A stretch of DNA of 58,994 nucleotides from a virus. Taxonomy: Duplodnaviria; Caudoviricetes. Position numbers and translations under genes: made by a program. The notes under the pieces are model-generated. The model did no database searches. It was not told where the DNA came from and saw only the letters and a program-made list of their open reading frames with translations. Shown piece by piece: positions 14,501 through 29,878 of this stretch. Numbering within the stretch: the stretch's first letter is position 1; each line of letters begins with the position of its first letter. The stretch lies in IMG/VR virus record IMGVR_UViG_3300033151_000226, positions 1-58,994 of that record; one strand, 5' to 3'.

Positions 14501-17500
14501 CTCTTTAACCCGCCTGCGTAGTTTCAGGTTCATTGAGATCTGTTCTTTCTTCGGGGCGGCCATAAACATCTTGGCAAACCGCAAACGCTCACCGATCTGC
14601 GCTACCTTATCCCCTGCTACCTTGAGATCGTAGTTCGCATCAAGCATTTGCTTTTCGAGATCACCGGATCTCCGTTTAGTAAACTCAGACTGGAACATTG
14701 GATCTTGCCCGGCCGGGGGCGTTTCGGCTTGGCTTTCTTCATACTGCCCAAGGATCTCTTGAACGTCCGATATCATGGTGCCCAGGTCCGTGAAGTATTT
14801 ACCGGATCCCATACCGCGGGCTTTAACCTTCTTCTGGAAGGATTTGAGGATATCAATGATTGCATCCAGGATCCGCTGGAATAGGTTGCGGTCTTTCTTC
14901 GCCAGCTCCCGGATAAAGACAGGATCCATGAAGGCGTCACCAACCACGTTGGCTACCATTTCCCGGAACATCTGAGTTTCGTCGTCGGCTTCTTGCCGGG
15001 CAGTGTCCTCGGTGTCCTCTCGCATCTTGTCGGAAAACTTTTTCAGGCCGCCGAGCTGCACATGACGCATGGCCACGTTGACGATCTGATCCCACAATTC
15101 CGGGTGAGTCTGTTCCAGGGTATGCGCTAACTCATGGCCAGTGACGCCCAGGAATGGATTTTGATTATCAATGTTGACGTAGATTGTCTTGGGATCACTG
15201 GGAAGGGCCACGCCGTTGAACGGGTAGTTTAGGTGTTCATCCCCGGTAGCCTTGAAGAATACGACTTTCTTACCGTAAACCCGCTGGACCGCTTTGACAG
15301 CTCCCGAAACTTCCGTCGGTGCCGCTACTTGCCGGTACGTTCCAGTCTTGACCTTCACGCCCAGGAAGCGGGCCATTGCCTGTTCGAGCTGCTTTGTAGC
15401 CGGGGTGATCCGGCCGAGCCCAACAACCAACCGCTTAACCTTGGCGCCGAAGCCGAGATCGAGCCCGTTCTTTGCGAACATCGGGAAGCTGGCCATAGCC
15501 GCGTCGTACATATCTTCGGTAATGGTGAGTGCGTGTTGCTTTGATGTGCCGCCGTGCAACATCTTGTCCATTGCGGCTTCGGCTTCATCCTTGGTATTAA
15601 ACCCGCCTTCGTAGGTGTAGCCCTCGCCGTCGGTAACGGCCCAGTTATTCATTCCCATCAGCTGCACCGTTACTTGGTGCGGATCCAAGGCTACGCCTTC
15701 GTCCTCCATGCGTTCGTCCAACTCGATCATATCGGTGGACATATCGCGCAAAAACCCTTCTTGAGCCGGGGTTATGCTTATGGATTCATTGGTTAGAATG
15801 TCGTCCGGGTGGCTAAAATGATCGCCCTGGTGATCGAGCATCTGGTTTTCATCCATCCAGTTTTCAAAGCGCGTTTCCAGATCCCCTCTCTCGCTGCGCC
15901 CTGGTTGTTTCGGGATCTCGATCTCACCTACCCGGCCGCCCCACTTCTTAACGAACTTGTTGGTTTCTTTGACAAGGATATTGTCGTAAAAGCCCTTCAT
16001 GCCCTCGCCGCCGACTTTCAGATCCAGGCCGGAGAACATATGGCCGTTGGTTCCGAGATCTATTTGCTCGGCCAACTCGTCTGTGACCTTGTTCACTCTG
16101 GTAAAACTCGCGCCAGCCTGCTCCATATCCGTAAGTTTTGATGATAGTTCTTTTTTCTTGGCCCGGCGTGCTGCTTCCGCTTCGAGTATCTTTTCAGCCA
16201 GTTCTTTGCCGACGTGATCTTCTAATGTTTCATCAGTCGGGTATATATTCTCAATACCGCCTTTCATCAGGCCGATCTCAAGCTCCCACTCGCGGTGCTT
16301 GTCGAGCCGCAACGCGCTACCTTCCGGTAGGTTCGACTGGACACGGCCCGGCCCGGAGCCCGGCTTGTACTTCGGTTTCGCGGTGATCCATTTGACGTGC
16401 TTGCTCAGATCGTAGCGTTCGGCCTGCTGCTGCCCGGTTGTCCAGGCAATCGTATCGTAGCCATTTTCAGCTGCATAACGGATCATCCGTTTCATGGCCA
16501 GCATATTCCAGCCTTTCTTGAATGGTGCGTCCGGTACGCCGCTGCGCTTGTTTATTGATCTGTAATATGTGTTTGCCAACTCTCTGGTGGAAAACGCTAC
16601 AGAAGGATCATGTACTGCACGCAATCGCCATTTTCCATTAGCTTCGTACACCATCCCGTCTGGTATTTCTTGTGATTTATACCCTTTCTTACGCCCGGCC
16701 TGGTGCCAGTCGCTCTGGATCTCCTCAATGAAAAGGATCGTTTCGCCGTTGGGCCCGGTGCGAGTATTGAAACGAATATGAACAATGATGTTCCTTTCGT
16801 CAAAGTGCTGTCCCTTGTAGGCGTCTTTCTCAACATCAACGGTCGTAGCTTCTGGTTTGGTAAGGTGCTTCTCGGCTTCTTCCCTTGTCGGGTAGCCTTG
16901 TTCGGACCATTCGCCATGTGCGGTTATCAGGAAATAATCAACTTCGCCGGTTTCATACCCACCACGAACAGGATCAAAGTCCCTGATCTTGTGCTCTCTC
17001 ACTTCCACGAAACCCTTTTGGGTTGTCCGGGTAACGGTTTCTTTCTGTACGGGGATCCGCAATATGAGCTCTTTGTATTTATCGCCGCCCGGTAGCTGCC
17101 AGTTTGCGTACTTCGTTGGAAAGCCGGTGTTTAGAATGTTCTCGTCGTTAAGTACCTGGGTGATAGCTTCTTCTTCGGTGGAATAGCTATCGGTAACGAT
17201 ATCCATTTCCTCGTCCTGGACATAAAACCCGTCCGGGCCTTCCACGACGCCAGCGCCAGTTGGCAGCATATCAATGGAAACAGTGTCAATCGTGTAGCTG
17301 ACCGCGCCCGCATTTTTGTAAGCCAACTTTGCGAACTCACGGTAAACGTGGTGCGGAAGGTTCTTGAAGATTACCTTGTCGCCTTCATGCCGGTAGTTGT
17401 AGTCCTCGTAACCTTCGGCACCCAAGTCTGTAAGATAGTTCTCTGCCGCGTCCGGGCCGTGTGGGGAGTGCTTGAAGTTGGCTTCGCCGGATACGGTAAG

Positions 17501-20500
17501 GAGACTTTCGCCCTTTTGGTCCTCGATCAACTCAAGCTGGTTTTCAGCTACAAAGTCCTGCAACTCTTTCCGGGTAGTGGATCCTTGCTCGTCGAGCCAT
17601 TCATCCAGGCCCATCCACTCGCGTTCCTCGGCTTTGAACTTGCCACCAGTCTGTACCATTTCGCCGGTTTTCTTACTGCGCTTCAATCCCTGCTGGCCGT
17701 TGAGCCACGTTTTATACAGTTCGGCCGTGCCTTTCTTCGGCATACCCTCGGCCTGGTTGACGGTTTCCACCAGTGCGGAGAAGAATGGATCCGTACCAGC
17801 TGGCACCTTCCTATGAAACTGGGGATCCTGCTCGGTATCAGCTGCCGGGGTCTTATCACTGTCGGCACTAAGCAGATTCATTACTACTTTGTACCGGGCC
17901 CGCGCCGTTTTCAGTTCCTCGGCCTGGGCGTATGGCTTCTTAATTGCTTCACGCTTAACGGCTAACGTTTCGGTATCTTCTTTCAGACTGTGCTTGGCAT
18001 AGGGGTTTTCTTCGTCATAGGAACTTACCCGGTTCTTAATTCTGGTAAGTGCGCCTTCGCCACTGAAACTATCAATGTGGGTGTATGATTTTACGTTCTC
18101 TACCGTCTTGCCTTCGATAGACATATACATCTCTAAGTTGCCCCACATGCTATGGGCCATGGACACATCAAAGCCGCGGTAGCTGAACAGCTTAACGGGC
18201 ATTGTGCCTGGATCTCGTTTCTTGTTGGCGACGTAACCCTTAACTACACTCTCGATCGCGGTAGCGGCCTTACCAACCTTCGTATAGTTGTTTGCGCCAA
18301 CCTGGAGAGAGAATTTATCTGGTAGTGGATTGGCTTCTCTTACAGCAACAAGCCTTTTCATACGATCTACTCTTTCTTCGTATCGGCCCTGTGGCCCGCC
18401 GTCTTTCTCAAGGCGCATGATTTCTTCTTCATCGTCAAATCGGCGTCTTGTGTGTGCGGTTTCACCCAAAGAGAGTTGATTGATCTTTTGGGATAACTCT
18501 ACTTGTTCCAGCATATAAGGATTGCCGGACGCTGCCGCTTTCATTTCTGCTGCGTTGGCTGCTTCCCCGCCGATATCTTCCATTACCCGGCCTGGGTTCT
18601 CTACGTACAGCTGCATGATGTACCGGGCTTTGGTTTCCTGTACTTGCCACATGCGAGAGTCATAGGTTGATTCTGTGGCGTATCGCTTGATCTCGATCTC
18701 GAACCCGTCTGGATCCTTGGCAAAGAAACTATTGCCGCGTCGAATGATCCGGCCTTCGCGCTGAGTTATATCAGCTGGCTTCCAAGGCGCGTCCAGGTGG
18801 TGAAGTGCGACAAGCCTTTCTTGCACGTTCATACCGGCGCCCATCTTGAAGGTGGACCCAAGCAGGATTCTGATTTTCCCGCTTCTTACTTGCTCAAATA
18901 GAAGTTGCTTACGAACGTCAGTGTTGTAATCGTGAATAAACGCGATTTCATTGTCCGGTATTCCCTGGACGGCTAACTTGGCCCGCATATCGTCATAGAC
19001 GGAAAACTGGGAAGTCAGTGCCGCAACGTCGTCTGGACTGTACCTGTCGAGCTTCTTCTGTGCTGGCTTGCTTATCGTCTGGTTCGGGCTATCTGCTTTA
19101 ACCAGTAGTTCACGATACTCCCGCTGCTCTTTCTTTTGGGTTCCCTTCGGGGTTGAGAGATCAATAAACACCAACTGGGTGCCCTTATCAGCGTTCCATT
19201 TGTCGTATGTCTTTTTGATGTTGCGAACAGCAACGTTCGTTTTACTGTCTGGATTGTCCGGTAACGATGGATCAATGAGTCGCATATCCAGCGCGGCCAA
19301 CCGTGCGTGGTATGTGATCGTAAGCATGTTGTCGTCGCCCTTGCCCGGCCTGGTGGGTAGGTTCTCGGCCCGGTGGACGATCTGTGCCATAAATTCGGCT
19401 TGCTCTGCGGATCTTTCAACAATTACGTTTTCAGGTTTGCCGCCCTTGATCTTCGGTATTGGCCAACGCTTGCCCGCTTCTGCGTGGGCCTTCATCAACT
19501 GTTCGTTGGTCATTTGGTCGGCAAAGGTTCGATAGATCCCTAACAACTCTGGCAGATTCTTGAACGATCTGAATCGTTCCTTCATCTTGTAGCCTTGCGC
19601 GGTTGAGTCGAGCTCTGCTTCCGATACGATATCGGCAAACAGGGCGGCCCAACCGTCGAACATATCCATGTTCCTTTCACGTAACAGGTTCGGGGCCACA
19701 TACCTGAACATGGTGTAGAGCTCGGCCACGGTATTACTTACCGGGGTGCCAGTTAAGAACGTAACCCCGCGCTGGCTACCGTTTATTTCCCTTGTGATCT
19801 CTGTCTTGAGATACAAGTCAGAAGCCTTTTGTGAGCCCTTGGTGTCGCCCAGGCCCGCAATGCGTGTGTGTTGGGTGGTGTAAAACAGGTTCTTGAACTC
19901 ATGCGCTTCGTCAACAACCAGATCATCAACGCCCAGTTCGCGCCAATCCATGAAGTCGTCAGTCTTAATCATGGACTGGTGGGCTTCTAACTTGGCCTGT
20001 AGTGATTCCTTCTTCTTTTGAAGCTCTTTGTATGACTTGTCGGACTTACCGGCCGCCACTTCTACCGCGGCTTGGCTTATTTCGAGATCCCGGATCTGCT
20101 TCGCGGTTTGCTTGGCCTTGTCCTCTGGTGACGTGTCTATCCGGCTAAAACTCGAATGAGCAACGATTACCGCGTCCCAGTCGCCCGTCGCTATCCTGGC
20201 AAAGAACTTCCGGCGATTGTCTTTCTGGAAGTCCTGTTTAGTCGCGGCCAGTACGTTCGCGTTCGGATAAAGGAAAGCAACATCTTCGGCCCACTGGGTT
20301 ACAAGGTGGTTCGGAACAACAATCATGGGCTTATTGACCAAGCCCATGCGTTTCTTTTCCATGATCGCGGCAATCGCTAAGAAGGTTTTGCCAGCTCCGA
20401 CAACATGATCTATCAGTCCGTACCCGTCTGATATCAGTCTCCAAGCACCATTCGCTTGGTGAGGATCCAGCGTGATCGAGTTGTTCATCCCAGGGAAGGT

Positions 20501-23500
20501 TAAAAAGGATCCATCAAATTTCTTTTTAGCCTGGGTGTTGAAGTTGTCGTTGTAATGCCGTACCAGCATTGACCGGCGTTCCGGTGTTTTCCACAACCAT
20601 TCCTGGAAGTGCTCTTGCAGTTCTTTCCGCTTTGCGTTTGCTTCCTGTGTGGCCACCGCGTCAACGGACGTAGATCCGTCGTCATTCTTGAATGTGACCT
20701 TTACTTCTTTGCCCCGTATGGCGTGGTCAATAATGCGCTGCAACGATACTGCCTGTGTAGCGTATTCACGCGCTGCAGGCTTCGCTTGGGCCCATGCCTT
20801 TTGTGAACCTTCCCACCTACCCAGGGCAGGAATGTAGGCATATGACGTATTCCATCCAGTGAGATCTTTAAGATACTCGTTCATAGTGTCCGGTGGGATC
20901 CATGGCGAGTGCATATCACTACTAATCTCGATCGCCGGGATATCCGCGGGCTGTACTTCGGCCAGTGCTTTGATGTTTTCCATCATGTTCGAGTCGGTTT
21001 CTGACTCTGCGCGGGCTTCGGCCAGCTTGCGCTTGACGTTTCCTGACAGGTATTCAGATCGGATTACATACCCGTCCTTCGGATCCCGGAACAGTTCGCC
21101 GCCCTCTAACAGTTCCTCGGCTACTTCTTCTTCCGTATTGCCGGTCAATTCAGCAATGCGTTCAAGATTGGCCCGGCCAGTCTCGTTAAGTGAAATCAGA
21201 AGGCCGTCACTGGCGCTGTCGGCGTGGTTCGGTGGTGTTTGGGGTATCGCTACTGCTTTCTTGAAGATATCCGCTTTCCCGGCCTTCGACGCGGCTACCT
21301 GTTGGCCGGTGTTCTTCGCTACCGTTGCGCTAACTGGTTTTGAGTAATCAGTTTCAAGTGCCAACAACCTGGGGAAGTCTGGATCGTCACGCAAAGCCAG
21401 CTTGTTCTGTTGGTCGTGGAAATATCCATGCGCTTTCTGAAATGCGTTGTAATGCTTGTTGAGTTGGGCACGCAAGAGTTTGAGCGCGGCCGGGGGTGAG
21501 TTTGGATTGATCTCGGCTTTGAGTAGGTTGTTAAGCGAATCACGCACGCGGATCCCGCTAATCATCCGGTCCCTGGCTTTCTTGTTCCGCAGGGTTGCTG
21601 GTTCGGATCTGAATGTCGTATTCCCGTCCGGGTCAACTACGTCGGGTAAACGCTGGTACACATTGCCCTTGCTTTCAAAGTAACCATGCACCTTGGCCGT
21701 TGTATCTACTTGCAGTTCAGCGTCGGGAATGGGTTTTTCGAGTCGCTTCCTGGCCTTCGTGTCTACCTTGTAGATCCTGACTGGCAGCATTTCGACTGCA
21801 CTCTTGATCTGGTTCGGAAGGGTTCTCTTTTCGTTCGGGGCCAGTGTGGGCTCGTCCTCACGATACATGGATCCAGAACGTTGCCACGTACCGAGCATCA
21901 TTTCGGGATATCTCGCAAAATACTCGTTTGTCACGATATCTTCGCCGCCCAGGGCGTCGGGGATCTCTGCAACGTTCGTCCAGTTCAGGCTTTTACTGGG
22001 TTCACCTGGGATGCGTTTCTGCAAAAAGATGATATCCGTAACCACTTCGGTTAAGGCATTTTCCTTGAAGGCCGTGTTTGGTAGGCGGATCGCGCCCAGG
22101 AAGTCTGCTTCGCTTTCAAGGTACTTCCGGGTTTTCGCTACCTTCTTGTCCATCAGGTGACGCGAGATAACCATTGCCACCAAGCCACCAGGCCGAACCT
22201 TCTTAATGGCTTTGCCAAAGAAGTAGTTATGAATTGACCAGCCGGAGATATCACGATTGGCCATATCTGTGATCGGGTAATTGCCGAATGGCGGGTTGCC
22301 GATAACCAGATCGAAGGTGTTGTCCTGGAAGGGGATCTCTTGGAAGCCCTTTTCCGCGTGGACCGTAGCTTGTGGGTACAGCTGTTGAGCGATCCGGCCG
22401 GTGATACTGTCGAGCTCTACACCTACCAGTCGGGACTTGGCCCGCATAGTTTCAGGCAATAGGCCAAAGAAGTTACCAGTGCCTACCGCTGGCTCAAGGA
22501 TCCGGCCGCCCCGGAAGCCAAGGCGCCTTATACCCGCGTAGATCCCTTCGATAACGTCAGTGCTTGTAAAGTGAGCATTGGTTGTAGATCGGCCGGCCGC
22601 TTCCAGTTCTGATTCAGTGAGCACGGCTTCAAGCTCTGGAACTTCTGATTCCCAACCTTTTGTAATGCCCTTGCTTGGGTGCCTGAACGCTTGCGGGATC
22701 CCGCCCCAACCAACATACCGGGCAAGGGTTCTCTGTTCTTCTGGCGTGGCCATTCGTTCGGTCTGCTCAAGATCCTTGAGAAGCTCGATAGCCTTGATAT
22801 TGTCTTTGTACTTGGTTTTTGCCCCACCGGATCCGAGCTCGTCGGATGGTGTTATGACATAGTTTGACCCGGCATTGGCTCCGGTCGTTCGATCTGTACT
22901 GTCCCCAGTTCGTCCAGGTACTCGTTCGTTTCCTGCTGGAGATCCTGTAGTTCCTGCATCAACTTCTGGCCTTCCGTCAGTGGTTCCTCGTCCTCGCTCT
23001 CCGGTGGCAGTATCAGGTAGTTGTTCCGTACTTCCATCCACGCTTCTTGGTGGCTGTACCCGCCCTCCATCAGCTCGTCGATCTCCCTCGCTGTCTGGTT
23101 CGCTGCGTCCTGTAGTGCCTGTTCCAGATCCTTCGACTTCTTGAGTTCCAGGTACATCGTCGGCCGGTGCTCCTTCCAGTGCGCCCTTGCCTTCGCTACC
23201 CAACCTCTCAGCTGTCTTTTCATTTTCCGTTTCCTCTGTATTAAGTATAGCACCTAAACCCTCTTTTATGTCCCCAAACAGCTCACCTTGGTCGGTGGTG
23301 GTTGGTTGTTCGGTTTGTGCTACTGCTTCGGCTCTGGCTTCGCCGCGGCTCTGGTATTCGGCTTCTCTGTGCAACGCACGCCACGCGGCCATTACCGCAC
23401 TGTCCTCAAGGATATCGTGCCTGTCCCACATCTCCTGGACGGTGCCTTGCTTGATCGCTACTTTGAGCTCTGCAAGTGGCACGCCGATATACCCGGCATA

Positions 23501-26500
23501 TTCTTTGAGTTGCTTCGGGGTCCAGCCATGGCCGATATCGTCTGCGCCCATTTGCTCGGTATCGTCAAACTCGGCCGTGCCCATCTTTTCTTCGGTAATC
23601 CGATCGCGTATTGCCGGTACTGCTTCGCCAATGCGTTTCGAGTTGGCCCGGAGCCGGTTTGCGTCACTGGTAATGACCGGGGCTTCGTTGCCCGGCCAGT
23701 ATTCTTCGATAACCTTTTTGAGATCCAAGAGCTTCTTACGATTGGCTGCGATACCAAGCAAGTGCACGGCCTTCGGTGTTGGGCCATGCCAGTTACGAAA
23801 CAGGTTTTCGATATCTTGCGGGCTCATGGCTTCGGCTTGACTGGGGAGCCCAAGCACGTAATTACCATCACCAAACAATGCGCCCAGGTGCTTAACCGCT
23901 TCAAAGAAGCCGCCGTCACCCTTCTGGACCGGCATTATCAGATTGGTTTTCTTGGCCAGTCGCATGAGTGCGCTCATGTGTTCTTTCTGGAGCTCGATCG
24001 TGCGGGCCTGCTTGCCAACAACATCGGGAGCAACGATCCATAGTGTTTCTTTGCTGCCTGTTCCAACCGATTCTACAATAGCTTCGTACCTGGCTAATAG
24101 TTCGTCAAAGGGTAGCTCTGCCAAAGCCGTTGCAGCGTCCTTCTCGGCCTTGGTAGTGGCCTTATCGTAAGCTGCCAAGGACTGTTTGAACGCGCTGTAT
24201 GCACCGGAATCAATAAATACCGGGTGTCCATCCTTCGCCATTTCAATAACCTGGCTGGTCGCGGATCCTTGCAACTCTGGAAGTGCCACGCCTACTGCCT
24301 TGCCTGCTTTCTGGTAGCCGCTAAGATCTCCGGGCCTGCTGGCGCCGGAACGGAACGAGTACACGCCCTGGACAAACTGCGAGTCGTTGAGGATCCGTTG
24401 GGTAGTTGATACGTCCGGCTCGGCCGGGGCGGGCACCTTGAACAGATCCGCAACATCAACGACGTTGAACAGGTATAGGCTCATGCCTTCGCGCTCTGCG
24501 ATCGTTACGTTGTTTAAGCTGATACCGGCCATTGTTACCCGGTTCATGTTGTCGCCGCGGATCCGCGCTTCTTCAACGGCCGCATCAATCAACCAACGAT
24601 CGAGTTTATTGCGATCGTTCTTGGCCTTCTGGCCAACGCCAAAGCCACTATCGTTCTCGGCATTGAATAACAGGCCACGCACGTCCGGGAAGGTGAGCGT
24701 CTGCCCGCTGCGGGTTGTTACGGTGTCGGCTGTTACCTTCGGCGTGAACTCGCCTGAAACGTTGTCACCCTCGCGCATGGTGCCGGTGTAGCCTTCGACG
24801 GGTTCTACGTCCCTGGCCGTACTGTTGGCCATGAAGAACGCATACGCAAAGCCTTCCGGGGTCTGCGATCGCCGGGCCTTATCTTCTTCCACGTCACCGC
24901 GGAGTTTGTGCATTAAGGATCCGAGCGTTGCTTCGACGTTCGCGGTCGGCAATGCGGGATTGAACTCGCCCCATAACTGGGTAGTCTTGGTGTACGGGTC
25001 GCCGTAATGGTGGGGCTGGAACACCAGCAATGGTTTTGGTAGGTTCGCTTCTGTCGCTATCCGGCCAATGGGGTTCTCAAGCACGTAAAACGTGGGATCT
25101 GTGAACTCGATAATGACTTTGGTTACATCAACCAGGGTTGTGGCGTACTCAAGCGGAGTGTCGAAGTAGTCAGTAGCCCATAGGCCGTACTTCTTCTCTA
25201 CCATTGCCGAGCTCTTGAGATCGTGTTGTGTTTTCCACCACCGGGCACCGGATACCGCAAACGACGTGCAAGGGCACGCGGCCAGTATGCCTACAACCTT
25301 TTTACCAGCTTCGTGGATATCTAAAATATCCCCTGTTGGCATGAACCGGACCAGATCATCACCGTCTTTGATATCGTAACGGATCACGTCATACCCGGCG
25401 TCTACATACGGTTGACTCCATGCACCAGTGGTATCAAATAGGCTGAGTATCACTTCTCTGCTGTGATCTTCTTCCCGGCCGATCCGCTTGGCTTCACGTT
25501 TCCAGGCTTCCAGCTGTGCTGCTGCCTGCTGGCTGGTAAGTAGCTGGTCGCCAATATGTTTCTTTGCAAAGTGCTTTTCTTCGTGTGCCGGGAATATAAC
25601 GTCCTTGGTCTTGTACCCTTCTGCCTGAGTCTGAGCCAGTTCCGGCGTGATCTTCTGATCCGCACGATCCCGCAAGGTGCCGTTATACATGATCTTGACG
25701 TAAAGGTTGCCGTTTTCGTCGGTAATCTTGGCCGTACCGAGATCCCTTGAGCCCGCACCAGTCTGTTGCCGAAAATCATTCCACTTGTCAATCGCGTCCT
25801 GGACTGATTTAACTTTGAACCTGTGTGGGTTGTCGCCTTCCTTGGGGCCACCCCACTCAACAAAGAATTGCGGGCGATACGCAATCGCGCTATCCGGCGC
25901 CGTGTCGAACGATTCCAGCTGTTCCTTGATGGTTCCCGCTTCCGTTTCTGCTTCTGGTACTGGTTCTGTTGCTGGTTCCGGTTCTGCTTCTGGTTTCGGC
26001 AATACAGATTCGGCCCATTCCTCTAACCTGGAGTCGCCCCAATTCTCGGCCCGGTCGCGCCATTGAAGGTGCCCGGTTACTTCCCGGCCGTCTGCTGATC
26101 GAACTACAGTCTTGTTGGCACCACCGCGGGTATCCTTGAGCTGCATCTTGATTGCCGTACCGTTTGGTAGCTTGATAGTCCTCGTTACGTTCGATTCTTC
26201 CCACAGTGCTTCGTCGGATTGTCTCGCTTTCTTCCAACGCTTCTCGCCTTTAAGGTGGCCTTCGAGTAGTTCAACTTCCTCGAACATGCCGCCATGCTGT
26301 TCCTCGATCTTGCCGGTGAACTCTGCCAGATCTCCCTTGAAGTAGGTTTCTTCCCGCGTGGCCGCCTGCTTGAGCTCTTTCTGTTTGCCCTGGTTGAGTT
26401 TCTTACGAACCGCAAGCCAATACTCCGTCCAAGTCGGGGATCTGCCGAGATCCTTTTCAAGCCTGTTCCAAAGTTGCGTAGCCCGGCTTTCCTGCATACT

Positions 26501-29500
26501 GGTGAAGTTGGCCGTACTGATCGACGCCATTTTCTTTGGAATAGCCCGGTCCATGGCTCCCGCTTCTTCTTTACTCCAAGCCTTTAAGAAACTATCCGGG
26601 ATCGGTGAGTCGTTCGGTTGCCCAAGGAACTCGGCCATAGACGATCGGTACTCGCTTGTTATGCCGTCCTCTTTTGGTGGGGCCGGTGGCATTTTCGCGC
26701 CTTCAAACAGATTGAAGTCGAAATTGCCAAACGGTTTGCTTTGGTTGCCATTTTCTAACCACTCTTTCAGGGCGGGTAGCGTGGTCATTGTGTGACCGGC
26801 GTATACCTGGGTGTCCTCAAAGCCTTCGCTGTAGTTGCGGAAGTAGGTTTCTTTTTCTTTGAATTGCTCGGCACCAATAATTATCTTGTGCTCGTCAAAC
26901 CTGCCAGTCTCGATATCTCGCTGGTCAACGATTGCAACACGCGGCCTGTCACTTGCCGCTTCCGGGCCCAGGAACACATCTACATGATCGCCGTCGTTGC
27001 CTTCGGTGCGTTTGATGTATCCGTAGTGGTCGACCATCGTTACTTGCCAGTCTTTGCCCTCGCGAGTGCTGCCGGACGGGTTCTCGATAGTGATATCAAA
27101 ACCGTGAAGGTTTACGTGGCCCTTCTTATAATTTCCTGCGTCCTTCTGGCCTTCGGTGGGTTCGGGTAGGTCATTGGTAGGCGACGTTGCCGCTTCGTGG
27201 GCCGCTTCGTTTAGATTTTCTTCGCCGTCACCAATTACGGGCGGGGATTTCTCCCCGCCTTCATTGACGAGATCTACTTCGGCTTGTTGCTGATCCCGTG
27301 TACGTGGTTGCTCCCTTCCTTCGCGCACTTGCCGCCGCTGTTCTTGCCCTGGTTCGCGTCCTGGACCCGGTGGTCGTTGTTCACCTTCCGGGATGGGGTC
27401 TTGCCGCCCTTCCTCTTGATCGGGTAGCCCGCTGTATTGTTGTCCATCATCTGTATCCTCTTGTGTTGCCACATCTTCAAGGGTTGTAGCGGAGCCCTGT
27501 TCTGTTGCCGGATCCCCGGTAAGATTTACCGTCTTACCTTCTTCGAGATCTTGGCCTTGTTTCTCTCTGGCACGCTGTTCAATAACGCGCCGCGCTTCTT
27601 TCGCAAGCTCCTCATGCGGGGAACGTTTCAGTTGTTCGAGTACGTGATCCGGGGCGATATCCATGGTATCGAGCAATTCATCATGGAGCCACTTGCGGGC
27701 ATTGACGCCGCGCTCTTTCAGGATATCCCAGGCTACTTGCCGGGCATTGTCGGATCTGGTTGGATCTGCCCACTCGTCGATAAGCTGCCGATCTTCCTGC
27801 TTCTCCAGGGAAGGCCGGATCTTCTTCATTCGTTTAGCGTCTGTCTCGCCGGTTATGCCACTTTCATTCGGTGAGAAGTTCTTAACATCACGATCGCGGA
27901 ACGTGTCTGCGATCATACCTGGCACTGACGCCGGGCCACCCATCATCATACCAACGCCAAAGGCCCAACCGATCCGGCCAAAGCCTTCACCAAACGTGGG
28001 GGCGTTCATTGTTTCGTCAATGTCGCCGCCAATGTGGGCCAGTTCTGTAACGGCTTCTGAACCACCTTCGGCCAAGGTGTTGATACCCAGTCCCTTCAAT
28101 CCCTTGATACCAATGGCCGCACGCTGGAACACGCCAAAGATGCGCTCTGGCACCACTTCGGCCAATGTCCTGAATACCATTTCTCTGGTTGCTTGTACGG
28201 GATCCTTACCGTCGTCGATCCGGGCCTTTACGTACTCGCCTGGTGCAACCATGGCGGCCATAACTGCTTCACCGGCCCATGGCAGCTTCGATACCGCACT
28301 GGCAAACATACCACTGGCCAGATATGGCAGGGAGTCCATTGCATCGGATCCCATTCGTAGAATGATATTCTCAGGACGTGAGAATCCCGCATGACGCATG
28401 TTGGTTGTTGCGGCTTCGTACAGATCCTTTGCAACCTGTTCGAGTGCCGGGTTCATGTTGTCCGGGTGATCGGCCGCCATTTGTGTGACGCCAGCTGCCC
28501 ACTCTTTGCCCATACCGGCATACTGCTGTACCCGGCCAAAGATCCAGTCCTTACCGTTTTTGAAGTCGGCCAATACTTCTTTTTGGAAGGCTTCTTCGTT
28601 CTCAACGCCGCGCTTACGCATTTCGAGCTTGCCCAGGTAGTCGGCCCACTGTTCATCTGAGAACATTGCCAGCATAGGATTACCGGCCATTTGCGGGGTT
28701 ATGTACTTGGTGAGATCGTTGAGCTGCGTTACGCGGGTTGCATACCGGGTAAATTCTTCGTCAGAGATCCGGCCAAGGTCCGGGTGTGAATAAATGGTAT
28801 CAGGGGCGAGTCCACGATCGACAAGAGCTTTCAATCCCTTGTGTCGCTTCTCCATGAGAGCGAAGGTTTCTGGTGTTTGTGTGACAGTGCCCTGGAACGG
28901 ACGGTCTACGCTGTAATCGTTCGGGCCGTCCAGTGCCGGGTTATCAGCACCATGGCGACGGGCGAAACGACTACGCGCCTGCGTGTCTGGTGTTGATGGG
29001 TTGATGGTAGTTTCTTGGCTGGCCGGCCACTTGATGCGATCGCCGTTATCGTCGAACTGTTCAATGCTTCCGGGCTCGTTGTCACCTTCCAGGAAGGCGT
29101 CGATTGCGGCTTCCTCGTTGTCGTATCCTGCGGTATTGACCATGTAACGCTGGCCATTATGGTCAAACGGGATGGTATCGCGCATTTCCACCCCTCGCGG
29201 GGCTGCGGTTGGCTGTTCTCGTTGGGCCGGTGCCTGCGGTGTGTTCAGATCGTAACTGTTGGCAATACCGGCGATATCCGGTTGTTCTAACTCTACGTGT
29301 TCTTCTTCTGCGGCCCTTACTGCTTCATCGGCCGTTGAATACGGATTTACCTTGCCAGCTTGTATATCAGATAGCGCGGCTTCAATCGCTTCATCGTCTG
29401 ATCCATAATCAATGCCGGTGTCTCTATCGAACCCAGGAACGTTGTACCACTTCCCATCTGGCCCTTGGGCCGTTTTGCTGAGTACCGTCGTGGTGGATCC

Positions 29501-29878
29501 ATCCTCGTTGGTTCGCTGCTTACCCTGCCTTACGGTTTCATCGTTATATTGCTGAGTGTAGCTCCGGTCCGGCTTCGGCTCCGCTGGCGTTACCTGGGAT
29601 CCAACATAGTCGGCAAAGCGTTCGCGGGAGTCTGTTGGGGGCTTGAACTCAAACCCTTGGCCTTCTGGTACCGTGCTCGGATCGTGCACAGGAATACCCG
29701 AATCCAAGATGTTGGTACGCTCATTGAACATATTGCGAAGCTCGGTTTCCCTTTCAGGTGTACCGGCCTTCGGTTTTAACTCCCGGTCATAGAAGCGATC
29801 CCGGACCGCTATTTTCTGATCGTAAGTTAAACCTTCCCAACGTTCGTCCTCTTGGATCTCCCGCCACGTACTCGCCAT
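11576..29878 (-). CDS. Giant (6100 aa) polyvalent DarB-like internal virion protein
   Basis: InPase-like 'NYKKGH...YGY......DGDHVDVF'; C5-MTase 'LSLFD..G/PCT.F..SG/ENP'; TGT-like 'IDSGAYS/APDVVG/PVQ/HLLG'; N6-MTase 'LEPAVGTG/GNPPF'; SNF2 'HVVGAGKT/VDEAH/QREGRIIR'; HELAH peptidase; LPD38-like 'RIPKPFE.G'. Confidence 0.93.
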   Translation of the reverse strand: MASTWREIQEDERWEGLTYDQKIAVRDRFYDRELKPKAGTPERETELRNMFNERTNILDSGIPVHDPSTVPEGQGFEFKPPTDSRERFADYVGSQVTPAEPKPDRSYTQQYNDETVRQGKQRTNEDGSTTTVLSKTAQGPDGKWYNVPGFDRDTGIDYGSDDEAIEAALSDIQAGKVNPYSTADEAVRAAEEEHVELEQPDIAGIANSYDLNTPQAPAQREQPTAAPRGVEMRDTIPFDHNGQRYMVNTAGYDNEEAAIDAFLEGDNEPGSIEQFDDNGDRIKWPASQETTINPSTPDTQARSRFARRHGADNPALDGPNDYSVDRPFQGTVTQTPETFALMEKRHKGLKALVDRGLAPDTIYSHPDLGRISDEEFTRYATRVTQLNDLTKYITPQMAGNPMLAMFSDEQWADYLGKLEMRKRGVENEEAFQKEVLADFKNGKDWIFGRVQQYAGMGKEWAAGVTQMAADHPDNMNPALEQVAKDLYEAATTNMRHAGFSRPENIILRMGSDAMDSLPYLASGMFASAVSKLPWAGEAVMAAMVAPGEYVKARIDDGKDPVQATREMVFRTLAEVVPERIFGVFQRAAIGIKGLKGLGINTLAEGGSEAVTELAHIGGDIDETMNAPTFGEGFGRIGWAFGVGMMMGGPASVPGMIADTFRDRDVKNFSPNESGITGETDAKRMKKIRPSLEKQEDRQLIDEWADPTRSDNARQVAWDILKERGVNARKWLHDELLDTMDIAPDHVLEQLKRSPHEELAKEARRVIEQRAREKQGQDLEEGKTVNLTGDPATEQGSATTLEDVATQEDTDDGQQYSGLPDQEEGRQDPIPEGEQRPPGPGREPGQEQRRQVREGREQPRTRDQQQAEVDLVNEGGEKSPPVIGDGEENLNEAAHEAATSPTNDLPEPTEGQKDAGNYKKGHVNLHGFDITIENPSGSTREGKDWQVTMVDHYGYIKRTEGNDGDHVDVFLGPEAASDRPRVAIVDQRDIETGRFDEHKIIIGAEQFKEKETYFRNYSEGFEDTQVYAGHTMTTLPALKEWLENGNQSKPFGNFDFNLFEGAKMPPAPPKEDGITSEYRSSMAEFLGQPNDSPIPDSFLKAWSKEEAGAMDRAIPKKMASISTANFTSMQESRATQLWNRLEKDLGRSPTWTEYWLAVRKKLNQGKQKELKQAATREETYFKGDLAEFTGKIEEQHGGMFEEVELLEGHLKGEKRWKKARQSDEALWEESNVTRTIKLPNGTAIKMQLKDTRGGANKTVVRSADGREVTGHLQWRDRAENWGDSRLEEWAESVLPKPEAEPEPATEPVPEAETEAGTIKEQLESFDTAPDSAIAYRPQFFVEWGGPKEGDNPHRFKVKSVQDAIDKWNDFRQQTGAGSRDLGTAKITDENGNLYVKIMYNGTLRDRADQKITPELAQTQAEGYKTKDVIFPAHEEKHFAKKHIGDQLLTSQQAAAQLEAWKREAKRIGREEDHSREVILSLFDTTGAWSQPYVDAGYDVIRYDIKDGDDLVRFMPTGDILDIHEAGKKVVGILAACPCTSFAVSGARWWKTQHDLKSSAMVEKKYGLWATDYFDTPLEYATTLVDVTKVIIEFTDPTFYVLENPIGRIATEANLPKPLLVFQPHHYGDPYTKTTQLWGEFNPALPTANVEATLGSLMHKLRGDVEEDKARRSQTPEGFAYAFFMANSTARDVEPVEGYTGTMREGDNVSGEFTPKVTADTVTTRSGQTLTFPDVRGLLFNAENDSGFGVGQKAKNDRNKLDRWLIDAAVEEARIRGDNMNRVTMAGISLNNVTIAEREGMSLYLFNVVDVADLFKVPAPAEPDVSTTQRILNDSQFVQGVYSFRSGASRPGDLSGYQKAGKAVGVALPELQGSATSQVIEMAKDGHPVFIDSGAYSAFKQSLAAYDKATTKAEKDAATALAELPFDELLARYEAIVESVGTGSKETLWIVAPDVVGKQARTIELQKEHMSALMRLAKKTNLIMPVQKGDGGFFEAVKHLGALFGDGNYVLGLPSQAEAMSPQDIENLFRNWHGPTPKAVHLLGIAANRKKLLDLKKVIEEYWPGNEAPVITSDANRLRANSKRIGEAVPAIRDRITEEKMGTAEFDDTEQMGADDIGHGWTPKQLKEYAGYIGVPLAELKVAIKQGTVQEMWDRHDILEDSAVMAAWRALHREAEYQSRGEARAEAVAQTEQPTTTDQGELFGDIKEGLGAILNTEETENEKTAERLGSEGKGALEGAPADDVPGTQEVEGSGTGTTGRSEPDSEGDRRADGGRVQPPRSVDGSTEQLPDTATGERGRGTTDGRPEVDAGTTGSPAGNERVPGRTGDSTDRTTGANAGSNYVITPSDELGSGGAKTKYKDNIKAIELLKDLEQTERMATPEEQRTLARYVGWGGIPQAFRHPSKGITKGWESEVPELEAVLTESELEAAGRSTTNAHFTSTDVIEGIYAGIRRLGFRGGRILEPAVGTGNFFGLLPETMRAKSRLVGVELDSITGRIAQQLYPQATVHAEKGFQEIPFQDNTFDLVIGNPPFGNYPITDMANRDISGWSIHNYFFGKAIKKVRPGGLVAMVISRHLMDKKVAKTRKYLESEADFLGAIRLPNTAFKENALTEVVTDIIFLQKRIPGEPSKSLNWTNVAEIPDALGGEDIVTNEYFARYPEMMLGTWQRSGSMYREDEPTLAPNEKRTLPNQIKSAVEMLPVRIYKVDTKARKRLEKPIPDAELQVDTTAKVHGYFESKGNVYQRLPDVVDPDGNTTFRSEPATLRNKKARDRMISGIRVRDSLNNLLKAEINPNSPPAALKLLRAQLNKHYNAFQKAHGYFHDQQNKLALRDDPDFPRLLALETDYSKPVSATVAKNTGQQVAASKAGKADIFKKAVAIPQTPPNHADSASDGLLISLNETGRANLERIAELTGNTEEEVAEELLEGGELFRDPKDGYVIRSEYLSGNVKRKLAEARAESETDSNMMENIKALAEVQPADIPAIEISSDMHSPWIPPDTMNEYLKDLTGWNTSYAYIPALGRWEGSQKAWAQAKPAAREYATQAVSLQRIIDHAIRGKEVKVTFKNDDGSTSVDAVATQEANAKRKELQEHFQEWLWKTPERRSMLVRHYNDNFNTQAKKKFDGSFLTFPGMNNSITLDPHQANGAWRLISDGYGLIDHVVGAGKTFLAIAAIMEKKRMGLVNKPMIVVPNHLVTQWAEDVAFLYPNANVLAATKQDFQKDNRRKFFARIATGDWDAVIVAHSSFSRIDTSPEDKAKQTAKQIRDLEISQAAVEVAAGKSDKSYKELQKKKESLQAKLEAHQSMIKTDDFMDWRELGVDDLVVDEAHEFKNLFYTTQHTRIAGLGDTKGSQKASDLYLKTEITREINGSQRGVTFLTGTPVSNTVAELYTMFRYVAPNLLRERNMDMFDGWAALFADIVSEAELDSTAQGYKMKERFRSFKNLPELLGIYRTFADQMTNEQLMKAHAEAGKRWPIPKIKGGKPENVIVERSAEQAEFMAQIVHRAENLPTRPGKGDDNMLTITYHARLAALDMRLIDPSLPDNPDSKTNVAVRNIKKTYDKWNADKGTQLVFIDLSTPKGTQKKEQREYRELLVKADSPNQTISKPAQKKLDRYSPDDVAALTSQFSVYDDMRAKLAVQGIPDNEIAFIHDYNTDVRKQLLFEQVRSGKIRILLGSTFKMGAGMNVQERLVALHHLDAPWKPADITQREGRIIRRGNSFFAKDPDGFEIEIKRYATESTYDSRMWQVQETKARYIMQLYVENPGRVMEDIGGEAANAAEMKAAASGNPYMLEQVELSQKINQLSLGETAHTRRRFDDEEEIMRLEKDGGPQGRYEERVDRMKRLVAVREANPLPDKFSLQVGANNYTKVGKAATAIESVVKGYVANKKRDPGTMPVKLFSYRGFDVSMAHSMWGNLEMYMSIEGKTVENVKSYTHIDSFSGEGALTRIKNRVSSYDEENPYAKHSLKEDTETLAVKREAIKKPYAQAEELKTARARYKVVMNLLSADSDKTPAADTEQDPQFHRKVPAGTDPFFSALVETVNQAEGMPKKGTAELYKTWLNGQQGLKRSKKTGEMVQTGGKFKAEEREWMGLDEWLDEQGSTTRKELQDFVAENQLELIEDQKGESLLTVSGEANFKHSPHGPDAAENYLTDLGAEGYEDYNYRHEGDKVIFKNLPHHVYREFAKLAYKNAGAVSYTIDTVSIDMLPTGAGVVEGPDGFYVQDEEMDIVTDSYSTEEEAITQVLNDENILNTGFPTKYANWQLPGGDKYKELILRIPVQKETVTRTTQKGFVEVREHKIRDFDPVRGGYETGEVDYFLITAHGEWSEQGYPTREEAEKHLTKPEATTVDVEKDAYKGQHFDERNIIVHIRFNTRTGPNGETILFIEEIQSDWHQAGRKKGYKSQEIPDGMVYEANGKWRLRAVHDPSVAFSTRELANTYYRSINKRSGVPDAPFKKGWNMLAMKRMIRYAAENGYDTIAWTTGQQQAERYDLSKHVKWITAKPKYKPGSGPGRVQSNLPEGSALRLDKHREWELEIGLMKGGIENIYPTDETLEDHVGKELAEKILEAEAARRAKKKELSSKLTDMEQAGASFTRVNKVTDELAEQIDLGTNGHMFSGLDLKVGGEGMKGFYDNILVKETNKFVKKWGGRVGEIEIPKQPGRSERGDLETRFENWMDENQMLDHQGDHFSHPDDILTNESISITPAQEGFLRDMSTDMIELDERMEDEGVALDPHQVTVQLMGMNNWAVTDGEGYTYEGGFNTKDEAEAAMDKMLHGGTSKQHALTITEDMYDAAMASFPMFAKNGLDLGFGAKVKRLVVGLGRITPATKQLEQAMARFLGVKVKTGTYRQVAAPTEVSGAVKAVQRVYGKKVVFFKATGDEHLNYPFNGVALPSDPKTIYVNIDNQNPFLGVTGHELAHTLEQTHPELWDQIVNVAMRHVQLGGLKKFSDKMREDTEDTARQEADDETQMFREMVANVVGDAFMDPVFIRELAKKDRNLFQRILDAIIDILKSFQKKVKARGMGSGKYFTDLGTMISDVQEILGQYEESQAETPPAGQDPMFQSEFTKRRSGDLEKQMLDANYDLKVAGDKVAQIGERLRFAKMFMAAPKKEQISMNLKLRRRVKELEADWENGTTVEPLRQVKLMQEIIKDPAVDRLEAEMESARAVSEKARERLHRQIALRNKLASQEPAFNRKYTEEQKEFMKKAGMKVQRRSLIDTFRGYMDIQWRESKRNLSDAIQHGLFDKFYGIKRAYRDYLDETETPAMDGYIAARLSTGSASVMRGILLHGAPEWRGGVISKVPGSRGLLDVFEPVKQELDDFLGWMIARRAERLMEEEKERNFDDTDIAAGLELANGTLERNGVTVQRKDLYEKVAEDFAEFKGRILDLAERAGLIDEETRPVWDKADWIPFYRVDNARQRGGIKFGKGMGLSHQTSGIRRLVGGESALSDPLGNIVMNFNHLIEASMKNLAVLETVDALDGTGALDKEGIKFNPKLIPRGGIKKMMLQDGIPEEILDMMGQLGVFDGIAKLWAMAEPAGKEVVKVMRDGKPEYYRVNDPMLLKSLTNVNIESLRGLFLPMRAAKTLLTTMITSEPGFMARNFTRDTLHAWVINEDHFIPIVDSVHGLYKSAKEEGGMLDMMFAGGSFQGGYINGTDPDASRKSIRVALRLKGYDNEYIQEHLDTVIDLTAGVWDRWRRVGDAVENANREAVYEAATKNGKERRQAIFEAKDLMDFSMHGSWAWIQMFNDMLPFFNARLQGLYKLGRSGAVPVPGLIAKEIAMRGMWIALASTALAALNSGDEDYEALEEWDKDAYWHLMPGTKFHTRIPKPFEVGVLYGTIPERMYRAAIGKDTPEKLFERMGHALMDTMAANPIPQIMRPAMEVFANESMFTGRPIEGMADRNKMKRSRYNASTSETMVAMGPFLELMGLSPKQGEFLVRGYMGTLGSYSLMAADVITREIMGRAPVPAMTARQLPVLGGFYRGSGPAWNTRYGTEMYEIHREVTELYGTVKAYEKQGDRESIEGLMDEDNRKQLKARKRIGKWARDRSKMRKAIDRIYRDPKMDPKAKREKINKIIERRNAQDAKAYKYFSPMFGRK
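22852..23223 (-). CDS. Overprinted TnpV-like protein (123 aa) inside the giant gene
   Basis: AGAGGA-N8-ATG; 'AHWKEHRPTMY.EL...K.L...L' and 'EA...V....LILPPE'; the giant frame is disordered here. Confidence 0.75.
   Translation of the reverse strand: MKRQLRGWVAKARAHWKEHRPTMYLELKKSKDLEQALQDAANQTAREIDELMEGGYSHQEAWMEVRNNYLILPPESEDEEPLTEGQKLMQELQDLQQETNEYLDELGTVQIERPEPMPGQTMS
23232..23252 (-). promoter_or_regulatory. Internal extended -10 promoter plus RBS
   Basis: TGcTATACT (23252-23244) then AGAGGA (23237-23232). Confidence 0.55.
27274..27450 (-). CDS. Overprinted 58-aa K/G/N-rich basic peptide inside the giant gene
   Basis: GAGGA-N5-ATGATG; 51 of 56 non-Met codons end in G/C by hand count. 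Confidence 0.55.
   Translation of the reverse strand: MMDNNTAGYPIKRKGGKTPSRKVNNDHRVQDANQGKNSGGKCAKEGSNHVHGISNKPK

Follow-up and report, generated by a model that had tools for sequence, protein, structure and literature searches.

Genes embedded in the +1 frame of a larger gene are a kind that has long been known. The textbook example among phages is Rz1 of phage lambda, which is located in the +1 frame of Rz on the same strand, has its own ribosome-binding site, is conserved, and has a lipoprotein signal and a demonstrated function. Here we examine a candidate of this kind, an open reading frame (ORF) of 58 codons located in the +1 frame of a giant gene for a DarB-like polyvalent protein in the virus record IMGVR_UViG_3300033151_000226, the full 58,994 bp of which are referred to as the window. 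The open frame, the G/C bias, and the start signals of this ORF all follow from the amino acid sequence of the host protein, and we favor, only narrowly and at about an even chance, the interpretation that it is a compositional by-product of a host linker and no gene.

The host gene is a 6100-codon ORF of 18.3 kb at positions 11576..29878 on the minus strand, identified from the ORF list and its Pfam domains. Within this single ORF, the encoded protein contains InPase (PF18823, residues 910-1041, E 1.7e-39, 135.2 bits), Eco57I/N6_Mtase, SNF2-rel_dom/ResIII/Helicase_C, and LPD38 (E 1.5e-44), which is the architecture of the phage-type polyvalent proteins described in the main text of Iyer et al. 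(2017; PMC5512222). Relatives of the gene in named phages carry the annotation "DarB-like antirestriction", and the portions of the Atu_ph08 paper covered here describe gp21 as a DarB-like protein of 4877 amino acids (PMC6630229). Those portions make no mention of overlapping, nested, or embedded, and the main text of Iyer et al. has no mention of TnpV, overlapping, frameshift, low-complexity, or linker. Keyword searching of the literature gave nothing on embedded ORFs in these giant genes, supplements, which may hold relevant domain maps, being outside its scope.

The 58-codon ORF and its host linker

The ORF extends over positions 27274..27450 on the minus strand, including the TAG stop codon at 27276-27274, and overlaps residues 810-868 of the host protein. 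It opens with ATGATG at 27450-27445, and its ATG at gene offset 2428 places it in frame +1 relative to the 6100-codon ORF. A Shine-Dalgarno (SD)-like GAGGA at 27456..27460 on the same strand, to which the host codons GAG GAT (Glu-Asp) give rise, is separated from the ATG by 5 nt (tacag). An open frame, a start codon, and a ribosome-binding site are all present, as the initial annotation had read them. The GAGGA-ATG is one of 6 SD-like-plus-ATG sites within the host gene. The full +1 stop-free stretch comprises 83 codons and a stop (27274..27525, minus strand) and also has earlier TTG and ATG starts, giving 68 and 66 codons, both of which lack an SD. The predicted 58-aa peptide has an isoelectric point of 10.2, a grand average of hydropathy of -1.51, and 9 Lys, 8 Asn, and 8 Gly residues. 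Our recount agrees with the earlier hand count of 51 G/C-ending codons among the 56 non-Met codons, or 53 of the 58 in total.

The host linker at 27269..27496 on the minus strand, approximately residues 795-870, was defined from the translation as rich in Q, E, R, G, P, and D and poor in hydrophobic residues. Only 3 of the 59 host residues across the ORF are L, I, V, M, or F, in line with the Q/R/E/G/P-rich composition that had been pointed out before. The InPase domain (26756..27151, minus strand), which was aligned with Atu_ph08, PBC5, and MW202675, lies directly downstream of the linker, and the ORF ends about 40 codons ahead of it; the placement in a linker before an enzyme domain was thereby borne out.

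Expectations from the host protein

What the host protein alone predicts was assessed by redrawing synonymous codons while the host protein sequence was held fixed. The 58-codon +1 frame remained open in 88% of 20,000 resamples, because a +1 stop needs a T at the second position of a host codon, that is, a hydrophobic residue, and these are nearly missing from the spacer. The start signals have a similarly simple source, since the host residues E-D-T-D-D-G, encoded as GAG GAT ACA GAT GAT GGA, spell GAGGA-n5-ATGATG. Of 5,000 resamples, 15% gave an SD-like 5-mer followed by an ATG and at least 58 codons within this linker, and 28% did if a 4-mer core was accepted. Across the whole gene, each resample contained a mean of 1.05 SD-plus-ATG ORFs of at least 58 aa in the alternative frames, with a probability of 0.28 for 2 or more, and 2 were observed.

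The length of the ORF does not exceed chance. In the +1 frame, the host gene has 28 stretches that run for 58 codons or more without a stop, among which the 83-codon stretch ranks 12th, and in 77 of 79 related loci a +1 stretch reaching the same minimum of 58 codons is located immediately upstream of InPase.

The initial annotation had taken the G/C bias as evidence for a gene. The third position of a +1 codon is the first base of the next host codon, which is G or C for Q, E, R, G, P, D, and A, and the G/C content at third positions (GC3) of the alternative frame, 0.914, is wholly accounted for by the host amino acids (0.894±0.022 expected). A frame-resolved scan along the gene, which had been proposed as a check, did place the maximum (0.91) over the ORF, at a value that the host protein leads one to expect. 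The accompanying caveat, that first codon positions of the giant frame are naturally GC-rich, was wrong in detail: the gene-wide G/C content at first positions is only 0.596, and the value of 0.91 is due to the composition of the linker.

Searches for relatives of the peptide and the linker

No families were obtained for the 58-aa or the 83-aa translation in Pfam (E≤0.01) or PHROGs (E≤0.1), and the 58-aa peptide had no matches at E≤1e-3 among 1.84 billion representative proteins. The tBLASTn search that had been suggested for the peptide covered 50,697 phage records and gave no match at E≤10. In a comparison with the +1 peptides of the 79 related loci, the best match had an E-value of 0.11, and an ancestral homolog was not found in any frame searched. 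Scans of viral and genome contigs with degenerate patterns returned a single 17-residue match, present in 3 loci. In one of these (L185), it falls within a 253-aa ORF but in the +1 frame, in which no ORF there reaches 40 aa, and the match seems to echo a short similarity of the 2 main frames to each other.

Nor does the peptide resemble a protein. AlphaFold2, run on the single sequence, returned a mean predicted local distance difference test score of 66.6, a predicted template modeling score of 0.13, and no secondary structure at all. The Atlas recognition score was 1729, whereas 91 of 100 proteins of known families reached at least 2300 and a conserved nested basic peptide of equal size scored 3292. 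Its look-alikes in the Atlas scored at most 0.81, a level attained by a third of shuffled sequences. The suggestion of a small DNA-binding or core peptide finds no support from any family, homolog, or predicted structure, and we count the orphan status and the unprotein-like character of the peptide in favor of a by-product.

The linker is similarly isolated. Host residues 560-1060 had 705 homologs at E≤1e-3, the best of which, apart from the protein itself, were 53-59% identical and covered the InPase part only, and in a comparison of residues 380-885 with 3476 candidates the sole match was the protein itself. Matches obtained by blastn in phage records were likewise confined to the InPase part, and scans of viral, metagenome, and genome contigs yielded no close relatives of the linker. 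The linker is missing from Atu_ph08 and PBC5, although both keep the conserved lead-in to InPase. By eye, it appears as an insertion of some 80 residues when compared with these 2 phages, flanked by a shared D-V-A-T/S stretch and the InPase lead-in, with the SD at the 5' edge of the apparent insertion. A hydrophobic-poor spacer before InPase, with at most 15% L/I/V/M/F in the last 80 residues, was found in 21 of 118 homologs. No tandem repeats were detected in 27100-27650, and no Rfam matches at E≤1 in 26900-27800.

Fragments of the region 26500-28500 occur in 4 public sediment or marine metagenome runs from 4 studies; the best run contains 93% of the sampled words and may represent the sample from which the sequence came. 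Contigs matching at 95% or more were identical over the covered part, with no variant sites listed in the 4 runs, and no RNA run was listed among the public runs with this stretch. The identical fragments mean that the sequence is no assembly accident, and nothing beyond that.

Nested ORFs in related giant genes

The initial annotation had proposed a repeated design, in which the linkers of the giant gene host nested genes, and had cited a TnpV-like ORF as its other example. This ORF of 123 codons (22852-23223, minus strand) likewise occupies frame +1 relative to the giant gene and has a GAGGA 8 nt before the ATG at 23223. The stretch that contains it, 22855-23253 on the minus strand, stood out among 43 alternative-frame stretches of at least 58 codons. 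The Pfam family TnpV (PF14198) matched with 21.0 bits (E 3.3e-4), which is below the gathering cut-off of 27, and the term TnpV-like refers to a resemblance and not to family membership. A PHROG matched at E 2.4e-17.

Searches by tblastn recovered the TnpV-like ORF in 21 phage records, always under a giant or large coding sequence (CDS). It also has relatives in 11 further viral loci. Its frame was derived from annotated coordinates in 10 phages, with LASTA and SJM3 left out, and relative to the annotated giant CDS it occupies the +1 frame in 8 of these (Pavtok, PEp14, Stean, Mwe-JY07, Atu_ph08, POI1126, VvAW1, and SopranoGao). In the Sinorhizobium phage PBC5 (NC_003324.1, 24742-27957), the TnpV-like part is in frame and ends an annotated CDS of 2180 aa, an arrangement due either to genuine fusion or splitting of the giant gene or to an incorrect frame in an old record. 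For Itty13, the CDS that has been annotated runs on the opposite strand.

The ATG and an SD of the TnpV-like ORF are kept in PEp14, Mwe-JY07, Atu_ph08, and the window, and its own frame outscores the host frame in 10 of 10 pairwise comparisons. The domain might alternatively be reached by a +1 frameshift, as the end of a longer product, although the conserved SD and ATG favor independent initiation. Judged by this conservation, these giant genes do contain embedded +1 genes, which the methods used are able to detect.

It was also noted that P0122, a protein of 119 aa called as a gene on a contig of 1469 bp, is 77% identical to the TnpV-like ORF, and that no other near relative came up for this part of the phage. 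A closer relative of the phage must therefore exist in public data. Scans seeded with the TnpV-like ORF gave no relative in metagenome contigs and at most 55% identity in viral contigs.

To survey nested ORFs more broadly, 80 viral loci centered on InPase were kept from 536 relatives; one of these was later dropped since its match was too near the contig end (L079). In a comparison of 1708 alternative-frame stretches in the giant ORFs with one another, the pairs in which the alternative frame exceeded the host-frame score by a factor of more than 1.25 formed clusters of 18, 12, 3, 2, 2, and 2 stretches, all in the +1 frame except for a single two-member cluster. The 58-aa ORF of the window was in none of them.

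The largest cluster is a family of 64-aa ORFs in the +1 frame upstream of InPase, identified by profile in 18 of the 80 loci (E 1e-27 to 1e-40), including L021:2229-2420, L033:2226-2417, L035:2001-2192, L082:2031-2222, and 14 more. The family keeps a GAGGT-type SD (GAGGTGA in 3 of the 4 loci shown), the ATG, and the TGA, and its changes fall mostly on third positions of its own frame. No Pfam or PHROG family corresponds to it, and it lacks a homolog in the window, where the best match of a profile built from 4 members, in any frame, had an E-value of 0.27 and was located away from the ORF.

In the 12-member cluster, 11 stretches match the TnpV-like ORF. A basic family of 56-62 aa (L015:3141-3308, L018:3174-3359, and L063:2271-2450), the source of the Atlas recognition score of 3292 mentioned above, scores 0.93 in the Atlas to a viral cluster of 140 members. 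A basic peptide of 50 aa (L022:2985-3134) has 98 relatives in viral contigs, and a low-complexity peptide of 74 aa, compared between L182:601-822 and L184:601-831, scores 240 in the alternative frame and 135 in the host frame. Relatives were found for 5 of the 6 nested ORFs checked, namely the TnpV-like, 64-aa, L015, L022, and L011 types, and only identical copies for the sixth (L019). A general pattern of nesting is supported by the conservation of these 5 types and of L018 and L063, which belong with L015, and none of the named phage records inspected annotates the TnpV-like ORF or any other nested ORF of this sort. As a general habit of these genes the proposed design is supported; to the 58-aa ORF, which lies in a linker without relatives, it may apply.

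Synonymous sites and calibration on relatives

Resampling with a fixed protein is blind to any constraint under which the host protein itself evolved, and only the synonymous sites of the host gene can therefore tell. An estimate of about 93% for an artefact, obtained from this resampling alone, was lowered after calibration on the relatives. The high alternative-frame GC3 of 0.91 was also dropped as an argument against a gene, since conserved nested ORFs average 0.84 against a locus GC3 of 0.70.

The observations in this paragraph and the next weigh against the by-product interpretation. Across the ORF, 28 of the 59 host codons end in A, compared with 17.1-18.6 expected (z 2.9-3.45 with 3 training sets), and the host third positions have a GC3 of 0.40, as against 0.60, and an A content (A3) of 0.47. 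The ratio of CAA to CAG is 10:2 over the ORF versus 96:146 elsewhere in the gene (Fisher p 0.005), and GGC is used for none of the 8 Gly codons. In blocks of 15 codons, the A excess spans host codons 795-869 and is gone in 870-884, just past the stop of the ORF. The alternative frame favors codons that are common in the phage, and its codon score is above that of the resamples (z 2.7, P 0.002, for the 58 codons; z 2.46 with another table). Furthermore, the gene contains 14 +1 ORFs of at least 50 aa that start with ATG, and the 2 that have an SD are those with the highest z-scores for the A excess, 6.1 for the TnpV-like ORF and 2.95 for the 58-aa ORF.

The calibration set consisted of 436 ATG-initiated +1 ORFs with lengths of 50 aa or more, taken from those of the 79 loci that have at least 600 host codons. 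All 36 ORFs in conserved clusters carry an SD, with a mean A-excess z of 5.8 and a mean alternative-codon z of 2.9, in a reference class that is phylogenetically clumped, 18 of the 36 representing one family. Among the other 400 ORFs, the share with an SD rises with the A-excess z, from 14% of 326 ORFs below 1 to 24% of 34 at 1-2, 57% of 14 at 2-3, 60% of 10 at 3-4, and 81% of 16 at 4 or more, whereas the local motif density predicts only 12-19%. In hydrophobic-poor linkers, the mean alternative-codon z is 3.08 for ORFs with an SD outside the known families (n=20) versus 0.65 for those without an SD (n=34). Nested peptides of low complexity or basic character can also be conserved, as illustrated by L182 versus L184 and by the L022 peptide.

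The same data set limits to the signal. In the host gene, 2.6% of the 60-codon windows reach the A-excess z of the ORF, and alternative-codon z-scores across 27 stretches of the gene have a mean of 0.38 and a standard deviation of 1.4, which brings the real P for the ORF nearer to 0.03; the TnpV-like control has z 4.5-5.7. Three regions on the minus strand, 16508-16687 (z 4.2), 25928-26107 (z 3.7), and 18311-18490 (z 3.5), show an A excess without any SD-led alternative ORF, and the A-excess signature thus yields false positives in this gene. In the related loci, z is 3 or more in 9% of 191 windows from linkers that have no SD-led ORF, and in 14% of 77 windows at least 300 nt from any such ORF. 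Among the 8 SD-led ORFs with an A-excess z of 2-3, 3 resemble nonsense by eye. A PHROG search of the high-signature class gave 1 marginal match in 27 versus none in 30 controls, a result that is uninformative because nested ORFs are unannotated and so not in that library. On this calibration, an SD combined with an A excess at host third positions separates conserved nested genes from chance ORFs.

A further +1 stop-free stretch of 60 codons, at 29350-29529 on the minus strand, has an alternative-codon z of 2.1-2.45 (P 0.002-0.012); the ATG ORF of at least 50 aa in that region of the gene has no SD-like site.

Origin of the 58-codon ORF

If the ORF is a by-product, residues of about 795-870 would form a disordered spacer rich in Q, E, R, G, P, and D between a lineage-specific N-terminal region and InPase. 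The composition of that spacer would yield the open +1 frame, the G/C third positions, and the SD-plus-ATG, and nothing would be expected to select for the peptide. Under this interpretation, a chance of 0.15-0.28 for the SD and ATG and of 0.03-0.14 for the third-position signal give a joint chance of roughly 0.005-0.04. Both signals would be expected of a real, lineage-specific small gene in the +1 frame, whose own GAGGA-n5-ATG on the giant mRNA would start translation of a basic, disordered peptide of 58 residues. Such a gene would be one more case of a small gene with its own ribosome-binding site in a linker of a polyvalent gene, with the host frame reading through as a hydrophilic spacer, and from its position alone one might guess that the peptide is a partner or modulator of the neighboring InPase domain. 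The SD and the ATG are normally spaced, and the host third positions, with the A3 and GC3 given above, act like the second positions of another frame. The alternative-codon z of 2.5-2.7 is within the range of conserved nested ORFs of at most 70 aa (mean 2.95), which the SD-led linker ORFs outside families also resemble, unlike those without an SD. A raised GC3 of the alternative frame is likewise typical of conserved nested ORFs, and a conserved nested gene is present 4 kb downstream in the same host gene.

Against a gene stands the lack of a homolog of any kind, when 5 of the 6 nested ORFs checked have relatives, and of a predicted structure, together with the low Atlas recognition. Both frames are of low complexity, and neither appears to be the constrained one. 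The synonymous signal is modest and lies inside the heavy tail (9-14%) of linkers that have no such ORF, the reference class is clumped by descent, and the GC3 of the alternative frame (z 4.9) is more extreme than in any conserved case, the maximum being z 4.0. We put at about 0.1-0.3 the prior probability that a nested ORF is present in any given hydrophobic-poor linker of such a gene. An orphan, unstructured peptide is atypical of the verified nested ORFs, and weighed against the start signals and the third-position signal this leaves the odds near even, with the chance of a real gene set somewhat below one half. An improbable third origin, to which we assign only a small share, is that the sequence is what remains of a small gene that used to stand alone, or of DNA formerly read in the +1 frame, which was engulfed when neighboring genes fused into the giant ORF and left a trace in codon choice while the peptide came to be unselected. 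This would account for a weak synonymous-site signal combined with an unprotein-like orphan peptide. The linker is, by eye, an insertion relative to Atu_ph08 and PBC5, and the in-frame TnpV-like part of PBC5 shows that frame relations in these genes change. An intact SD, ATG, and open frame are, however, unlikely to last unselected, although here they are maintained by the host composition, and no ancestral homolog was found. The weights given to the 3 origins are a matter of judgment and not of computation.

Comparison with known systems

Hydrophobic-poor linkers provide a long open +1 frame, an extreme G/C content at third positions, and even an SD-plus-ATG nearly free of cost, and none of these is evidence for a gene. 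Giant polyvalent (DarB-like) genes may routinely carry small independent +1 genes in their linkers, some of which may have been engulfed when neighboring genes fused into one frame; that the 58-aa ORF is a young, lineage-specific member of this set is possible but somewhat doubtful, and if true it would add such a member to the nested +1 genes. Either way, giant anti-restriction genes probably conceal further small proteins. The combination of an SD with a third-position A excess would allow candidates to be found even where relatives are lacking; for such orphan candidates, the false-positive rate of the A excess taken alone has a rough bound of 9-14%.

The host protein of the window resembles the polyvalent proteins in the main text of Iyer et al. 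(2017; PMC5512222) in being a giant multi-domain protein of virion type with InPase, methylase, helicase, and LPD38. Within the same gene, the TnpV-like ORF shares with the 58-aa ORF the frame and a GAGGA-type SD, and its host spacer is similarly hydrophobic-poor, rich in G, R, E, D, and T, and A-rich at third positions. It differs in being conserved and in the strength of its signal, with an A-excess z of 6.1 and an alternative-codon z of 5.1, about twice the level of the 58-aa ORF, for which no relatives were found. The 64-aa family corresponds to the 58-aa ORF in its position relative to InPase, its frame, its similar length, its SD and ATG, and its hydrophilic host linker, whereas its members are helical-looking and leucine-rich, with conserved signals, and its profile misses the 58-aa ORF. 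Like Rz1, finally, the 58-codon ORF is nested completely in a larger gene of the same strand, occupies its +1 frame, and follows an SD-like site; unlike Rz1, it has no relative or recognizable motif and is known here from its sequence alone.

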